In this document: positions 10,840 to 53,806 of the stretch, in pieces
Layout of the letters: the number at the start of each line of letters is the position of its first letter
Numbering within the stretch: the first letter of the stretch is position 1
DNA from: Octopus vulgaris
Taxonomy: Eukaryota
Length of the DNA stretch: 64,000 bases
Assembly (NCBI GenBank): GCA_951406725.2
Contig: OX597819.1
Location: 51,522,001 to 51,586,000 of the forward strand
Direction: 5' to 3'
The notes under the pieces: model-generated
The model's input: the letters and a program-made list of their open reading frames with translations, nothing else
The model's database searches: none
Told to the model about the DNA's origin: nothing
Made by a program: the position numbers and the translations under genes

Positions 10840-11355
10840 ATAAACTTAGATAAACTTAGATATGTTTCAACCAAAGATTCGTCCAGGTCATGTCTAACTT
10901 AATAGCACCACCTGATAAACAATAAACGTCGCCCTTTTCAAGCCTAGCCAGGCTCATGGGCCCGGTTTCCCGGTTTCTGTGGCGTATGTGTTTCCCCCAG
11001 CTGGACGGGACGCCAGTCCATCGCAGCGTTAATCACGGAACAGGAAGAGAGAGTGAGAGAAAGTTGTGGCGAAAGAGTACAACGGGGGTTGCCACCACCC
11101 CCTGCCGGAGCCTCGTGGAGCTTTTAGATGTTTTCGCTCAATAAACACACACAACGCCCGGTCTGGGAATCGAAACCGCGATCCTACAACTGCGAGTCCA
11201 CTAGGCCATTGCACCTCCACGCACCACCTGATAGGACATCTAAATCCTTTTTAAGTCAAGTTTTGTTTATGGTGCATTCAAGTAGTGAGTTGTATCCAGG
11301 CATAGATGGCTTGTCTGGTATTCCTTGAAGAAATTTGGCCAGACTCCGTTTAGAG
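10840..11355 (-). mobile_element. 3' end of a second CR1-type LINE family, interrupted by a SINE
   Basis: Minus strand KRSLAKFLQGIPDKPSMPGYNSLLE, compare KMELDLFLSGVPDEP at about 49820. Tail has a TATCTAAGTT duplication. Confidence 0.65.
10918..11220 (-). mobile_element. SINE with head C and a V-domain-like tail
   Basis: A box TGGCCTAGTGG, B box GGTTTCGATTCC; tail CTGCGATGGACTGGCGTCCCGTCCAG...GAAACCGGG; 13-bp TSD GCACCACCTGATA (10905-10917, 11221-11233). Confidence 0.9.
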
Positions 11356-11934
11356 GTGTGTGGTTTCCGCTTCATCGGGGAATTACCTCCCTTTGCAGGT
11401 TAAGGGCACCGTGACGGTGTCGAGCCTTTCTGGTGACATCGATGTTCGCCTGGGGCTAAATGCAACAGTAACACCCCCACCACCCTGCCCTGTCCCTAGC
11501 CATATTCAGATGGCTTTAGTCCCTTATGTTATCGAGCAGTTACTGTCTATATCCCTTTTAGAGAATTATTATTGCTTTCGAACAGATTTTCGAAATCAGC
11601 AAATGTATTTTGCTTGAAAATCTATATAAGAAAATCCTGCAGAGTGAGAATTCGTCGAGGAAGCGGAGGCCTACCACACGCCGATGATAGGCAATACACC
11701 TTGAAACCATGGTCCGTGTGTGGTTTCCGCTTCATCGGGGAATTACCTCCCTTTGCAGGTTAAGGGCACCGTGACGGTGTCGAGCCTTTCTGGTGACGTC
11801 GATGTTCGCCTGGGGCTAAATGCAACAGTAACACCCCCACCACCCTGCCCTGTCCCTAGCCATATTCAGATGGCTTTAGTCCCTTATGTTATCGAGCAGT
11901 TACTGTCTATATCCCTTTTAGAGAATTATTATTG

Positions 11935-11936
<2 letters not shown>
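11356..11936 (+). mobile_element. retrozyme-like non-coding element: 1.6 copies of a 360-bp monomer with an HHR at the monomer junction
   Basis: 221-bp direct repeats 11356-11576 and 11716-11936 with 1 mismatch; HHR core at 11675-11720; ends in (TA)n. Confidence 0.8.
11649..11744 (+). ncRNA. type I hammerhead ribozyme (U4C core, palindromic helix III, long helix I)
   Basis: CACACG-CCGATGA-tAGG(caataca)CCTt-GAAA-CCATGG-TC^CGTGTG. Helix I is extended by GAAGCGGAGGCC/GGTTTCCGCTTC and AATTC/GAATT. Confidence 0.8.
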
Positions 11937-11969
<33 letters not shown>

Positions 11970-12159
11970 CATATATATAGACATATATATATGTGTGTGT
12001 GTATATATATATATATTCATTTATATGTATATGTGTGTGTGTATATGTATATGTATATATATACATACATATATATATGCATATAAATATATTCATACAC
12101 ATATATACATGTATATACATACACATACATACAAATATATATATACATACACACCCACA

Positions 12160-12210
<51 letters not shown>

Positions 12211-12600
12211 ATTTATATTTTTGTGTTGAATCTTATTTTATTTTAGTTATTATTGTTATTTTTGTAGTTCTTGTTGATGACATTTGTACTTATTATCATT
12301 CGTTAGCAGGGTATTTAATAGTCGTCAAATGTTACTTTGTAAGTTGATACAACACTATCTGCATGCTTCGCTGCCTGTTGGTCTCCAAAGGGACGGTCCT
12401 TCTTAGAAATTCTATACCCCAAGAGGCCTTCATCTTAGATGTTTTACTGGGTTGTCTCGAATTCAGGAGTGGAGCAAGTGCTTCTTTTATGTTTTTGTTT
12501 TGTTAACTCCTCCCCTTTATTTTTTTTTTTTATTCTACTTTGTATATTTATTCCTTTAATTAATTGTTTATTTACATTCTTTCCATCTGTGTTAATAAAG

Positions 12601-18408: not shown

Positions 18409-19669
18409 GTAAAAAGTGAAAAAACTATAGAAGGCTTGTTTTAAAAGGTTAAAAAATATATTTGAGTCATTATGTCAGAAGAATGTTATAAATTTTTTTC
18501 ATACAGTGACATAGTTTTTGAAGAAATTACCGGTTTCGTGTTAACTTTTCAAATTTCTCAAAACATCGTGTTATGACTTCGTTATGAAGTGTAAAGAGGA
18601 GTTCCAGGTAAGGGGGGGTAATAAGTGATTTCTTCCGGTGTAAGGGAGATAATCGCTTTATATTTCTTGCCTGTTTGACTTAATGGGGTGAGTTTCTCTG
18701 TATAAGAATATTAGAGCGGTTAAGTTTGGGCTTATGTTTTTCAATGAAGGATGTTTCCTTGTTTAGTCTAATTTGTGTTGGTGTTCCAATAGCACATTGA
18801 TAAAATGGAAAGATTAAAAATTGTGGTAGTAGTTGCTTTGCGCATTTCTCAATATGCTCACTAAAGGGTATCATTCTGTATTCTGGGAATGCAATCTGTT
18901 ATCGATGCAGTGTGCATCTACGTCTGAGTGATAGTCCCGTGGATCCCACGTAGTTTTGGTGGCAGCCCGAGCATCTTATGACATAAATTATGTTTTCAGA
19001 AGCACAAGTAAAATTAGATTTGATCTTGAATTTTTGTCCCTCTTTGAAGAGGAATTCTCATCCTTCTAGAAGGTTTGGGCATGTTGCGCAGTTTGGTCTA
19101 CCACATTTTTTACTTTTGCATCCGTAATTTCAGAAAGCAATTTTGCCTTTGTGAGAATCTTTTTAAGTGATTTAGGTTGTTTGTATCTTTTAATGATTTT
19201 ATGTATGTTTAGAATTTCCTTTAATTTGGGGTCCTTATGAAGTATTGGTAAATTCTGGGTGATGATGGTGAAGGCGTCTTTGTTTCTGGGGTTGTATGTG
19301 GATATGTAAGGCAGTATTTTCGGGAAAGGTGTGTTGTTGTGTTGAACTTTTCTCAAAGTTTCTATGTCGATTTCTGTTGCACGTCTGATCCCATCCTCTA
19401 TGAGTTGAGCTGGGTAGTGTCTGTTAATTAGGGTGTTTTTGAGTTCTTGTAGTCTAAAGTTCCTGGTATTTTGTTCTGACACTATTGTGCATATCCTTCT
19501 TGCAAGGTTGAAAGGGATGTTTGTTTTAGTGTGTCTTGGGTGGCATGAATCAAAAAGAAGGTATTGTTTGGCGTCTGTGGCTTTGTAAAAAATGTCTGTC
19601 TCTATTTTAAGGTTAAGGTTTCTATTTTCTATATATTCAACCACGTGCTTTCACACTCCAACTTTCTCA
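18403..19669 (-). mobile_element. Neptune-type PLE copy 1: 5'-truncated, with an inverted terminal fragment
   Basis: ORFs 19066..19644 and 18680..18874 are nearly identical to the thumb and GIY-YIG of copy 3. 19622-19669 is the element's 3' terminal sequence in the opposite orientation. Confidence 0.92.
18516..18563 (-). ncRNA. minimal type I HHR, U3-A8 variant, in the PLE 3' UTR
   Basis: TTTTGAGAAAT-TTGAAAA-GT(taac)AC-GAAA-CCGG-TA^ATTTCTTCAAAA; helix III is the palindrome ACCGGT. Confidence 0.72.
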
Positions 19670-19681
19670 TCTATCTATCTA

Positions 19682-19744: not shown

Positions 19745-20070
19745 TTGCTATTATGTTAAACTATATCGTATGTCCAACTTTGGTCAAATGCATTTTAAAT
19801 ATTTATGTTTGCAATAGCTAGAGAGGGTGTGAATCAATACCCTAACGTGTCCAGTTCGATTATTTTACACTTCTGACATTTTTTTGTTTCTTTGATCGAT
19901 TCTCAAGGGATGCAAGGCAAATGTGACCTTTGGGTCATTTAAACTCACAGCAAATAGAATCGAACCAATGACCATGAAGCATTCAATCCAAACAAAGCTC
20001 TTGCGATTCTGCCAATCTGACATGTTTTACACACACACATGTGGTTGGGAAGCAGGCTTCTTACCACTCA

Positions 20071-20136
<66 letters not shown>

Positions 20137-20460
20137 TGAGTGGTAAGAAGCCTGCTTCCCAACCACATGTGTGTGTGTAAAACATGTCAGATTGGCAGAA
20201 TCGCAAGAGCTTTGTTTGGATTGAATGCTTCATGGTCATTGGTTCGATTCTATTTGCTGTGAGTTTAAATGACCCAAAGGTCACATTTGCCTTGCATCCC
20301 TTGAGAATCGATCAAAGAAACAAAAAAATGTCAGAAGTGTAAAATAATCGAACTGGACACGTTAGGGTATTGATTCACACCCTCTCTAGCTATTGCAAAC
20401 ATAAATATTTAAAATGCATTTGACCAAAGTTGGACATACGATAGTTTAACATAATAGCAA

Positions 20461-43229: not shown

Positions 43230-43750
43230 CGACAACATTCTAGATAGCAGACCCAAATCGTCAGCGCTGACAGACTGACAAGATTAAAGATGGAAACAAG
43301 TGATTATATTAAGCGTCGGGGCTGACGTATCAAAATGCGAAAAAAATGGCGTTCAACTATATTTCTTCATCGCGAAATACAAAGACAGCGCTGTAAGATC
43401 TAAAGTGCTTATTCTTAAATCGACTTCGCAAAACCCATTTGAAGATTCAGGTAATGAAGTCGCGACAAGATAACGATTTCACAAATAGGTCTTTGATGAT
43501 TCGCGATATGTGCTGCCTATTCGATTCCTGGCAGTTGTGTGCAATATTTTGGAAGCAGTAGGTCAGCTGTGTGTGGGTAGTACAGGCGGGAAAAGATGTC
43601 TGCTTCGACTATTTACAGCATTTCTCAAGAGAAAAGCAGAGTAGTGCGAATAACCGCTAATGGTAGCTGTGACATTGTTGGTGCTGACTGAGTGTGTGAA
43701 GGCCAATTTATCTAACTTGGAGGACCTGCACTACGAAATTTTTTGATGCA
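43230..43750 (+). pseudogene. possible very old LINE RT remnant
   Basis: Scattered DRLTR and IDFAKP (DFAKAFD-like) peptides only. Confidence 0.3.
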
Positions 43751-43859
43751 AACCAGATTTATTCGCATCTTTCCTGACAGATGTTTATTATAACTGCTAA
43801 CATATTGGGAACATTCTTAACTACAATAATCAGGACCGAGCAGTGATACAAGAAGAACA

Positions 43860-45880
43860 CCTACACCCCGCAAAAAATAAAGAAAACTCTATTCTCACTA
43901 ATTAAAACCCATGGAAAGGAACTGACAACCTTGACTTTCTAACAAACTTTAAATGCAAACCTAGCCTCTTCTCATGGTCTGCCAAAAATACACAAAAGCC
44001 AAATTATAAATGAAACCATTAAAAAATTACCAAAGACATACATACATACATACACCTAACCCGGGGGACCTAAAACTACGACCCATTGTACCTGGCCCAG
44101 CCTGTGAAACACACAGACTAAATCTACTTATGGACATCCTCCTGAAACCCTTCCTTAAACACATCGATAGCCATATCAGAGATGACTTGGATATGTTAAA
44201 TCACCTTCCAAAAAAGTCAAGTATACCTCATAATTATGGACTAGAGGCAATTCAGTTCTGGCTGGATCAATTTCCGGAAGAAATGCCAAAAAGGATCAGC
44301 AAAGAATTCATTACTAAATCCGTTGAATTCATCCTACATAATAACCACTTCTTGTTTGACAATACGTTTTACCGTCAAAAGTCCGGAATTGCTATGGGTA
44401 CAAGGGCAGCACCAGTAATTGCGAACCTAACAATGGGCTACCTGGAGGTAATAATATACCAGGAATCTTCATCGACCCTTGAAAACCCCCTTTCCCAATA
44501 CATAAAAGAGAATTGGAAAAGATTCCTAGACGACTGTTTTATACACTGGAATGAAAACACAGGTAAAACGTCTTCCTAAAATTCAAAAACCTATTGAACA
44601 GCGTCAACCCAAACATACAGTTCACAATGGAGTACAACCAAAAGGAGCTTCTATTCTTAGATATACTAATTTAAAAAATTAACCTAAAAATAGAAACAGA
44701 CATATTTTACAAAACCAGACGCCAAACGATACCTGCTTTTTGATTCATGCCACCCAAGACACACTAAAGCAAACATCCCTGTCAACCTTGCAAGAAGGAT
44801 ATGCACAATAGTGTCAGAACAAAATACCAGAAACTTTAGACTACAAGAACTCAAAAACACCCTAATTGACAGACACTACCCAGTTCAACTCATAGAGGAT
44901 GGAATCAGACGTGCAACAGAAATCGACATAGAAACTTTAAGAAAAGTTCAACACAGCAACACACCTTCCCCGAAAATACTGCCTTACATATCCACATACA
45001 ACCCCAGAAACAAAGAAGCCTTCACCATCATCACCCAGAATTTACCAATGCTTCAAAAGGACCCAAAATTAAAGGAAATTCTAAACACACTTAAATCATT
45101 AAAAGCTACAAACAACCTAAATCACTAAAAAAGGCAACGTTATTTTCTGAAATAACGGATGCAAAAGTTTAAAATGTGGTAGACCAAACTGCGCAATATG
45201 CCCAAACCTTCTAGAAGGATGAGAATTCCTCTTCAAAGAGGGACAAAAATTCAAGATCAGATCTAATTTTACTTGTACTTCAGAAAACCTAATTTATGTC
45301 ATAAGATGCTCGGAATTGTTCGCTGCTACATAGGGTCCACGGGATTATCGCTCAGACGTAGATGCACTCTGCATCGACAACAGATTGCATTCTCAGAATA
45401 CAGAATGATACCCTTTAGTGAACATATTGAGAAATGTGCAAAGCAACTACTACCACAATTTTTAATCTTTCCATTCTATCAATGTGCTATTGGAACACCA
45501 ACACAAATTAGATTAAATCAGGAAACATTCTTCATTGAAAAAATATAAACCAAAACTTAACCATTCTAACATTTTTATACAAAGAAACTCATCTCATTGA
45601 AAAAAAAAAGAAAAAGTATAAAGCGATTATCTCCCTTATACTGGAAGAAATTCCTGATTACCTTCCCCTGCCTGGAAATCTTGACTTCATAGCGAAGACA
45701 TGGCCCAATGTAGGTAAAGAAATTTGCGAAATTTGAAAAGAATACACGAAACCGGTTATTTCTCCAAAAACTATGTTGCTATAATCAAAATTTGATAACA
45801 TTTTTCTAACATAACGACTTAAATATATTCTTTAACCTTATAACACAAGCCTTTCGTAGTTTTTTCACTCTTTTTCATTT
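43860..45880 (+). mobile_element. Neptune-type PLE copy 2, frameshifted, with a diverged 3' UTR
   Basis: ORFs 44010..44579, 44811..45128 and 45273..45548 align to copy 3 (LRPIV, GIAMGTRAAP, WKRFLDDCF, YIGST); ends in (TA)n. Confidence 0.93.
45723..45768 (+). ncRNA. minimal type I HHR, U3-A8 variant
   Basis: TTTGCGAAAT-TTGAAAA-G(aataca)C-GAAA-CCGG-TT^ATTTCTCCAAA. Confidence 0.6.
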
Positions 45881-50894: not shown

Positions 50895-51571
50895 GGTTCG
50901 GCAAACGAGATCGATAAAATGACTCAGCGGTTCGCCAAAAGATATCGATAAAATGACTTTGCGGTTCGCAAAACGAGATCGATAAAATAACTTAGCGGTT
51001 CGCAACACGAGACCGATAAAATGACTTATTGGTTCGATAAACAACATCGATAAAATGACTTAGCGGTTCGCCAAACAAGATCGATAACATGACGTAGCGG
51101 TTCGAAGAAAAAGATCGATAAATTGGATTAGCGGTTCGCTAAAGGAGAGCGATAAAATGACTAGGCGGTTCGCAAAACGAGATCGATAAACTGACTTAGC
51201 GTTTCGACGAACATGATCGAACAAGCGGTTCGCCAAACGTGATCGATATAATGACATGGCGGTTCGGCAAACGAGATCGATAAAATGACTTAGCGGTTCG
51301 CAAACAGTGATCGATAAAATGACTTGGCGGTTCGCGAAACGCGATCGATTAAATGGCATAGCGGTTCACCAAACTAGATCCATAGAATGACTTAACGGTT
51401 CGCCAAACGATATCGATAAAATGACGTAGCGGTTCGCCAAAAATGATCGATAAAATTATCTAGCTTTTCGACAAACATGATCGACTAAGCGGTTCGCAAA
51501 ACTAGATCGATAAAATGACACAGCGGTTCACCAAACGAGCTCGATAAAATGACCTAGCGGTTCGCCAAACG
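50895..51571 (+). repeat. 34-bp minisatellite (about 20.5 units) derived from the SINE B body
   Basis: Consensus GCGGTTCGCCAAACGAGATCGATAAAATGACTTA versus SINE B ACTTAGCGGTTCGGCAAAAGAGACCGATAGAATAAG. Confidence 0.9.
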
Positions 51572-53767
51572 TGCAGTTGTAATAATGGATACATCATACT
51601 ATAGAAATCTTGTAATTTCCTTGCTTGATGACAATCAACATTATGAAAAAATCACCAACTACATCCCACAAAAAATAATGAAAACTCTATCTTCGCTAAT
51701 TAAAACCCATGAAAAGGAACTAACAACCAAAGAGATTGACTTTCTAACAAACTTTAAATGCAAGCCTAGCTTCTTCTATGGTCTGCCAAAAATTCATAAA
51801 AGCCAAATTATAAATGAAACCATTAAAAAATCACCAAAGACATACATACACACACCTAACCCGGGGGACCTAAAACTACGACCCATTGTAGCTGGCCCAA
51901 CCTGTGAAACACACAGATTAAGTCTATTTATGGACATCCTTCTCAAACCCTTCCTTAAACATATCGATAGCCATATCAGAGATGACTTGGATATGTTAAA
52001 CCACCTTCCAAAAAAAGTCAAGGAAGAAACAATCATGGTTTCATTTGATGTAGTTAATTTATATACCAGTATACCTCATAATTATGGACTAGAGGCAATA
52101 CAGTTCTGGCTGGACCAATTTCCGGCAGAAATACCAAAAAGAATCAGTAAAGAATTCATTACTAAATCGGTTGAATTCATCCTACATAATAACCACTTCA
52201 TGTTTGACAATACGTTTTACCGTAAAAAATCCGGAATTGCTATGGGTACAAGGGCAGCACCAGTAATTGCGAACCTAACAATGAGCTACCTGGAAATAAT
52301 TATTAACCAGGAATCTTTATCAACCTTTGGAAAGCCCCTCTCTCAATACATAAAAGAGAATTGGAAACGATTCCTGGACGATTGTTTTATACTCTGGAAT
52401 GAAAACACAGATAAACTCCTAAAATTCAAAAACCTATTGAACAGCATCAACCCAAACATACAGTTCACAATGGAATACAACCAAAAGGAGCTCCCATTCT
52501 TAGATATACTAATTAAAAAAATTAACCTTAAAATAGAAACAGACATTTTTTACAAAGCCACAGACGCCAAACAATACCTACTTTTTGATTCATGCCACCC
52601 AAGACACACTAAAACAAACATCCCTTTCAACCTTGCAAGAAGGATATGCACAATAGTGTCAGAACAAAATACCGGGAACTTTAGACTACAAGAACTCAAA
52701 AACACCCTAATTGACAGACACTACCCAGCTCAACTCATAGAGGATGGGATCAGACGTGCAACAGAAATCGACATAGAAACTCTGAGAAAAGTTCAACACA
52801 ACAACACACCTTCCCCGAAAATACTACCTTATATATCCACATACAACCCCATAAACAAAGAAGCCTTCACCATCATCACCCAAAATTTACCAATACTTCA
52901 TAAGGACCGCAAATTAAAGGAAATTCTAAACATACATAAAATCATTAAAAGCTACAAACAACCTAAATCACTTAAAAAGATTCTCACTAAAGCAAAATTG
53001 CTTTCTGAAATTACGGATGCAAAAGTAAAAAAATGAGGTAGATCAAACTGTGCAACATGCCCAAACCTTCTAGAAGGATCAGAATTCCTCTTCAAAGAGG
53101 GACAAAAATTCAAGATCAAATCTAATTTTACTTGTGCCTCTGAAAACATAATTTATGTCATAAGATGCTCGGGCTGCCACCAAAACTACGTGGGGTCCAC
53201 GGGACTATCACTCAGACGTAGATGCACACTGCATCGACAACAGATTGCATTCCCAGAATACAGAATGTTACCCTTTAGTGAGCATGTTGAGAAATGTGCA
53301 AAGCAACTACTACCACAATTTTTAATCTTTCCATTTTACCAATGTGCTATTGGAACACCAACACAAATTAGACTAAACAAGGAAACATTCTTCATTGAAA
53401 AATATAAGCCCAAACTTAACCATTCTAACATTCTTATACAGAGAAACTCACCCCATTAAAAAAAGGCAAGAAATATAAAGCGATTATCTCCCTTACACCG
53501 GAAGAAATCACTTATTACCTCCCCTTACCTGGAACTCCTCTTTACACTTCTTAACGAAATCATAACGATGTTTTGAGAAATTTGAAAAGTTAAACACGAA
53601 ATCGGTAATTTCTTCAAAAACTATGTCACTGTATGAAAAATATTTATTACATTCTTCTGACATAATGACTCAATTTTTAACCTTTCAAAACAAGCCTTCT
53701 GTAGTTTTTTCACTTTTTACTATCTTCTATATATTCAACCACGTGCTTTCACACACCAACTTTCTCA

Positions 53768-53768
<1 letters not shown>
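51571..53768 (+). mobile_element. Neptune-type PLE copy 3, the best preserved: RT, Cys-rich linker, GIY-YIG endonuclease, 3' UTR
   Basis: One frame 51585-53459 with a single TGA (53034-53036). Motifs AVVIMD, FYGLPKIHK, SFDVVNLY, GIAMG, RFLDD, LPFLDI, SCHP, NCATC, FTCASENIIYVIRCSGCHQNYVGST. Confidence 0.96.
53571..53619 (+). ncRNA. minimal type I HHR, U3-A8 variant
   Basis: TTTTGAGAAAT-TTGAAAA-GT(taaac)AC-GAAA-TCGG-TA^ATTTCTTCAAAA. Confidence 0.65.

Positions 53769-53806
<38 letters not shown>

Follow-up and report, generated by a model that had tools for sequence, protein, structure and literature searches.

A young non-LTR retrozyme family of Octopus vulgaris with the insertion signature of Penelope-like elements

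How does a short, non-coding, ribozyme-bearing sequence come to be copied into microsatellites, and on what template? The question is raised by a locus in a 64,000-nt stretch of the Octopus vulgaris genome (assembly GCA_951406725.2, contig OX597819.1, positions 51,522,001 to 51,586,000 of the forward strand; hereafter the window), where two direct repeats of 221 nt each (11356-11576 and 11716-11936) lie at a spacing of 360 nt and differ only at 11438 (A) versus 11798 (G). The longest ATG-initiated open reading frame (ORF) wholly within the element (11356-11936) encodes 50 aa. Its 5' end lies one base past the start of the predicted product of hammerhead ribozyme cleavage, and a TA-rich array (11936-12206) directly follows its 3' end. 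The original prediction, made from the letters of the window alone, had described the repeats, the lack of a credible ORF, the start next to the cleavage product and the entry of the 3' end into (TA)n, all of which were reproduced. The answer proposed here, with a rough probability of 0.8, is that the element is one arm of a young family of 360-nt tandem retrozymes, likely copied into (TA)n by a Penelope-like element (PLE).

According to the accessible sections of the papers cited here and below, non-long terminal repeat (non-LTR) retrozymes are tandem units of 150-450 nt that give linear and circular RNAs, with PLEs as candidate helpers (PMC7229834). In vertebrates, retrozymes and PLEs co-occur and are connected by the phylogeny of the PLE pseudo-LTR (pLTR), the mechanism being left open (10.64898/2026.07.22.740005). 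PLE insertions typically include an inverted, 5'-truncated copy and a tail of 30-40 nt at one end (PMC8557442). Work in vitro with a purified PLE protein showed nicking of AT-rich DNA and extension of both target strands, with initiation at a pair of neighbouring internal sites that delimit the tail; the protein is predicted to form a dimer (PMC11167929).

The 360-nt unit is far from confined to this locus. Of 716 candidates from a genome search, 40 yielded 232 matches; most are 99-100% identical, and they form tandem arrays on many contigs. Exact patterns occur genome-wide as 820 U4C cores and 1,492 ribozyme junctions. Copies at hundreds of loci, spread over many contigs, are 97-100% identical, subfamilies extend down to about 85%, and a single-copy local duplication is thereby ruled out. 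Its unit size lies inside the 150-450-nt retrozyme range. Single arms reach 15 ribozyme junctions and uniform arrays up to 23 ribozyme-bearing units; ATG ORFs within one family array do not exceed 133 aa, and no similarity to PLE proteins was found within the unit in the family loci fetched. The family is dispersed, mobile, non-autonomous and devoid of LTRs, primer-binding sites and polypurine tracts not having been searched for. The proposal of a multi-copy, non-coding, hammerhead-bearing, young and PLE-moved unit is supported by these matches and by the copy ends described next. Among the papers listed by searches of the openly licensed literature, no title or abstract opening describes a cephalopod retrozyme or a paired-arm insertion anatomy, and a term search of the available text of an octopus repeat annotation gave zero occurrences of 'ribozyme' (PMC13282606).

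The most informative feature, invisible from one window, is the combination of two fixed 3' ends with paired inverted arms. Exact 3' ends were listed genome-wide (197 long, at unit position 221 followed by TATA, and 530 short), and 120 stretches were fetched, corresponding to 122 of 145 intervals and including all those listed on contigs C1 and C2; they represent a minority of the family loci. Among 222 arms sampled, 110 stop at unit position 177 and 92 at 221. TA follows 211 of 218 family 3' ends, so that both end positions are ambiguous by 1-3 nt. The 120 loci contain 97 head-to-head pairs, of which 94 join a long and a short arm, none joins two alike, and three are unresolved (one end at 165, one pair split by merging, one reaching beyond the stretch). 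A further 28 arms are unpaired, five of them being cut by the end of the stretch. Independent choice of ends would predict about half of the pairs to be alike; the observed rule points to an asymmetric double priming rather than to two start sites used at random. Of the pair junctions, 52 show an overlap of at least 1 nt, 32 are blunt joins and 13 contain inserts. Arm lengths within pairs correlate (rho 0.61), and the longer arm may be either one (Wilcoxon p 0.18), which means that fold-back of a single arm cannot explain the pairs. Target-site duplications are masked because both outer ends sit in (TA)n. An optional tail at one end only (the 177/221 ends), an inverted 5'-truncated copy and a microsatellite target are all features of PLE insertions, and the family is a young dispersed non-LTR retrozyme with the full PLE insertion signature. 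We infer that the PLE enzyme binds the 44-nt tail (Table 1) and starts there. The window copy is a single long arm.

Each unit carries a predicted type I hammerhead. In the window its segments run in the order CACACG, CCGATGA, TAGGCAATACACCTT, GAAA, CCATGG, TC and CGTGTG; the GTC lies at 11712-11714 and the cut is predicted after 11714. Helix II pairs 11689-91 with 11699-701 and has a U-U pair at its base, and the palindromic helix III spans 11706-13. The stem closing helix I is prolonged by another 29 pairs (z = -4.11; a fold this good was reached by 0 of 200 shuffles), and the circular unit is predicted to be highly self-paired (z -5.8 against 60 shuffles). The layout of a type I hammerhead across the start of the second repeat, with a long helix I and a predicted GTC cut, is confirmed. 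The catalytic core is absent from the unconstrained lowest-energy fold, and forcing it costs about 7 kcal/mol; neither this nor the U4C and U-U deviations figured in the original prediction. The perfectly palindromic sequence ACCATGGT is predicted to form a self-dimer at -11.2 kcal/mol; a palindromic helix III with dimer dependence has been described (PMC4209133). Across 20 chosen related motifs, 95% of cells pair and double changes occur in 8 of 12 pairs, against 18-38% pairing in slid controls, kinship among the variants inflating the shuffle control. Rfam gives no hammerhead match in the window element and none in eight relative loci; as the latter include canonical cores, the blank at the window element is uninformative. 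An Rfam scan of the whole window gave only microsatellite-driven microRNA matches among the best 150 of 439. Subfamilies near 85-95% identity have a U3-U4 core and the youngest a C3-C4 core, both one step off the consensus. Older relatives have the canonical CUGAUGA core and share helix III and two internal motifs with the unit; one has a 351-nt period. The U4C change predicts weak activity of the window hammerhead, and the hammerhead of the family is probably attenuated and dimer-dependent. Elsewhere (L151-L167, L092:1390-1590 and L096:7553-7660), there are further older families of retrozyme type whose hammerhead cores are canonical; some of them are arranged head-to-head, and Rfam misses them. 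A candidate older relative in the window itself (43540-43600) was dropped, being single-copy and without BLAST support.

The variants carried by the arms bear on the nature of the template. After removal of eight rearranged or noisy loci, 227 of 240 common variants across 87 pairs occur in the two arms alike. Locus L257, with 14 and 7 full units in its arms, holds a single haplotype, and L260 has the same haplotype plus one further variant in all six full units of both arms. Locus-private variants are likewise fixed across six units (L037) and eight units (L105). Variants fixed in every unit of an array would need a single-unit bottleneck, most simply a circle. Sequencing runs X1 and X5 (RNA, by our guess) and X16 each contain one closed 390-nt contig of a single haplotype, which is a weak indication. 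In run X18, summed depth is far higher over unit positions of about 67-185 (11422-11540) and the U3-U4 core dominates at 11681-11682, which suggests many more short or older copies, or another dominant subfamily, in the sample. At L094, an identical cluster of three changes occurs three times, twice in one arm (units 4 and 7) and once in the other (unit 7); it may result from conversion, a trimer template or an assembly error.

Coding PLEs were considered as possible helpers. In the abundant PLE family of the window (Table 1), copies terminate in (TA)n at two ends separated by about 41 nt; the minus-strand copy at 18410-19680 combines a short end with an inverted long stub. A spacing of about 40 nt between two ends in (TA)n is seen in coding PLEs of this genome. 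The window family was rejected as the parent of the retrozyme: its 3' region and tail differ, and its sequence is unrelated to the unit. A search for the GIY-YIG endonuclease revealed at least 16 open frames of 781 aa among the 150 matches listed. They belong to a young intact PLE (L249-L256, L225, L230), in which a 479-aa frame lies upstream of the 781-aa reverse transcriptase (RT)-endonuclease frame and the 3' region contains short repeated motifs. Seven fetched copies are 98.6-99.7% identical and end in (TA)n; head-to-head arms with a one-sided tail occur in two of eight loci, and the ends number 14 short, 6 long and 5 other. Compared with three other PLE tails, its 38-nt tail gives the better alignment to that of the retrozyme, though a weak one. 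By age and behaviour only, the 781-aa PLE is a weak helper candidate.

The proximity of the window copy to the cut site invites the explanation that insertions are run-off cDNAs of hammerhead-cut RNA, starting at the cut, and for the window copy alone this may be so. For the family it is unlikely. Genome-wide, the window copy and five others start at the cut, five arms at unit position 1 and one at 360 (from 15 and 4 pattern matches, respectively, the remainder being point changes or GT slippage), against 5.1 expected at two positions from a background stop rate of 126 ends per 73,533 nt, and 1,492 junctions are read through. In the sampled loci, position 1 accounts for 3 of 213 5' ends and position 360 for none. 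The claim that insertion starts at the cleavage site because its template was hammerhead-processed therefore fails at the family level, 5' ends being scattered without excess at the cut. The older repeat flanking the window copy continues with GTG in 8 of 11 relatives at the junction; this microhomology places the breakpoint anywhere in unit positions 1-4, and the start near the cut is within chance. Of 69 arms that reach the cut a second time, 8 stop no more than about 12 nt from it, roughly twice background in a post hoc comparison, whereas on the first passage only 1 of 131 stops there. First-pass stops are in excess at positions 13-80 (70/202 versus 17/119 in later passes), an excess that a block at the long stem or joining at the palindrome at 52-64 fits equally well. 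Such stops may mean that some templates had been cut, that structure obstructed the enzyme or that ends were joined at the palindrome. Very unlikely is the view that the unit is the pLTR of an unseen autonomous PLE and its copies truncated by-products. PLE pLTRs do bear type I hammerheads (PMC4209133), the loci fetched are a minority of the family, and one locus, L217 (2712-3022), joins the 5' side of a diverged family copy, via a short inverted piece, to the 3' untranslated region (UTR) of a coding PLE, which may be a template switch or a later deletion. However, 126 arms that pass the first cut go on in unit sequence, reaching 15 units. No RT and GIY-YIG ORF is contiguous with the unit in the fetched family loci except at this chimera, PLE protein matches lying outside the units and abutting a 5' end at L217 alone. 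The 5' flanks of 17 single arms and of the window copy are unalike, save three matches among L064, L125 and L130, and the PLE 3' regions inspected (30 + 30 loci) are unlike the unit except at the L217 junction. Same-strand ends 4-5 kb apart at L096 and L120 were considered as pLTRs of a full PLE and rejected as separate insertions. An origin as a satellite or Helitron-like repeat that spreads as DNA, its palindromes arising by fold-back, appears highly implausible. DNA rolling circles also yield uniform tandem arrays such as those seen here, but the fixed sense-strand 3' ends, variable 5' ends, strict pairing of long with short arms and covariation of the ribozyme all speak against such an origin.

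A more serious alternative, to which we give a minority but appreciable probability, is that the ribozyme is vestigial and that PLE machinery copies uncut linear multimers, arrays being maintained by long sources and by insertion into existing copies. Some of the observations below speak for this alternative, others against our reading as a whole. The core CCGATGA of the window is non-canonical (U4C) and older subfamilies carry C3U in its place; all young subfamilies have one or the other change. U4C lowers activity in vitro considerably, yet viroid infectivity is retained, in the available account of that work (PMC3088659), and 8 of 9 predicted Xenopus retrozyme dimers are reported as uncleaved (10.64898/2026.07.22.740005). 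PLE insertion in vitro did not need hammerhead cleavage, unprocessed RNA being the main substrate (PMC11167929). No excess of 5' ends is seen at the cut. Identical unit mosaics lie in register in both arms of L116, which indicates that linear multimers are copied too, and L106 also has an in-register unit mosaic; the haplotype of L116 switches somewhere in positions 198-250, close to the AT-rich long end. Also against our reading, locus-private variants are common to both arms in only 10 of 90 cases, two RNAs of one dominant source locus would also yield shared haplotypes, and a closed contig also arises from tandem DNA or tandem transcripts. As to the helper, the tail resemblance is weak and post hoc (p 0.011 with an older subfamily, 0.14 with the window copy), a simple pattern scan found no hammerhead in the 781-aa PLE, and no PLE with a matching pLTR was found among those inspected. 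Against a vestigial ribozyme, new variants fixed in every unit (L037, L105, L260) need a single-unit bottleneck; 5' truncation shortens arrays at each round, yet several haplotypes have arrays of at least eight units; and the subfamily changes preserve pairing and fall at the free position 7.

The mechanism we favour, PLE-driven copying into (TA)n, would proceed as follows. An asymmetric PLE complex would bind the tail hairpin and nick both target strands. Two cDNAs would be primed on one RNA source, at 221 and at about 177, and joining of their ends by short homology would create the palindrome. With slightly better than even odds, the long uniform arrays would result from repeated circuits of the PLE enzyme on a circular monomer that the attenuated hammerhead had produced; some insertions would copy linear multimers. 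The window copy would have kept the long arm only, joined to its flank via GTG. A more specific version can be offered only tentatively and is, on balance, doubtful: the family would have been active recently, a PLE dimer would sit on the 44-nt hairpin of a single 360-nt circle and make two rolling-circle cDNAs on opposite target strands, each time one from either side of the hairpin, the 781-aa PLE would drive the family, and the ribozyme would have been tuned down (C3U, then U4C) such that circles survive. The anatomy, copy numbers, end rules, haplotype sharing and covariation are direct observations; double priming, the circular template, ribozyme activity and the identity of the helper are what we infer from them. 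In L1 twin priming, both target strands prime on RNA, giving an inversion joined by microhomology. Its cDNAs copy different parts of the RNA, whereas those of the octopus family begin at sites separated by 44 nt and share one template sequence, often over several units.

Table 1. Coordinates of the retrozyme copy, its flanks and the Penelope-like elements in the window
Feature	Position	Strand	Basis
Full 360-nt unit (unit positions 1-360), non-coding, 47% GC	11356..11715	+	Repeat and ORF analysis
Terminal partial unit (positions 1-221), stops at the long 3' end of the family	11716..11936	+	197 exact genome-wide matches to end + TATA; 92/222 arms
44-nt tail between short (about 175-177) and long (220-221) 3' ends; hairpin predicted	11893..11936	+	
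Type I hammerhead motif	11675..11720	+	Predicted; helix I 11675-80 with 11715-20
Long stem prolonging helix I (unit 281-313 with 10-44)	11640..11755	+	Fold prediction
GTG microhomology at 5' junction	11356..11358	+	GTG continuation in 8/11 relatives of the flank repeat
Older unrelated repeat, truncated at the 5' junction of the insertion	11225..11355	.	1,593 candidates, best relatives 82-91%
(TA)n-rich target microsatellite	11937..12206	.	211/218 family 3' ends enter TA
Three broken copies of an RT + GIY-YIG Penelope-like family	51558-53770; 43787-45880; 18410-19680	+; +; -	17,945 endonuclease candidates genome-wide

Around the insertion, ARAGORN found no tRNA in 10900-12300, and no empty-site allele of the locus was seen in the sequencing runs checked. 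Just upstream, at 10929-11199, lies a very abundant repeat, which we take to be SINE-like. Elsewhere in the window, about 20 copies of a 34-nt tandem repeat (50895-51571) directly precede a PLE reading frame, and a near-perfect palindrome with (TA)30 at its centre occupies about 19907-20300.

The family is of a known retrozyme kind, with unusually clear mechanistic evidence. In the accessible description of metazoan non-LTR retrozymes (PMC7229834), unit size is similar (350-390 nt in mussel, 330-350 nt in axolotl), as are the non-coding tandem unit with one type I hammerhead, the self-paired predicted circle and the co-existing PLEs. The window hammerhead resembles axolotl HHR_Amex2 in the U-U base of helix II and the short helix III. 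The U4C core is particular to the octopus family, and the circles and cleavage expected of non-LTR retrozymes are only predicted here. The strict head-to-head insertion of long and short arms in (TA)n is not described in the sections available of PMC7229834 and 10.64898/2026.07.22.740005. Endonuclease-bearing PLEs (PMC8557442; Poseidon of Anolis, PMC11167929) share the two 3' ends about 40 nt apart, the one-sided tail, the inverted truncated copy on the 5' side, partial tandems and AT-rich or (TA)n targets. The octopus unit differs from them in being non-coding, in its tail of 44 rather than 30-40 nt and in the many uniform units per arm. Unlike the minimal hammerhead of PLE pLTRs, the octopus motif has a full helix II and an extended helix I.

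PLE mobilisation of animal retrozymes has been proposed from co-occurrence and pLTR similarity, with the mechanism left open in the accessible accounts (PMC7229834; 10.64898/2026.07.22.740005), and the formation of PLE tails and inverted copies is treated there as unresolved in turn (PMC8557442, PMC11167929). Because the octopus family is young, short and rich in variants, its insertions can be interpreted one by one as individual events, and its uniform arrays provide a genomic argument for a single-unit template. Since an intact young PLE is present in the same genome, both questions become testable. If the 781-aa PLE indeed drives the family, a retrozyme could for the first time be reconstituted in vitro together with its helper.
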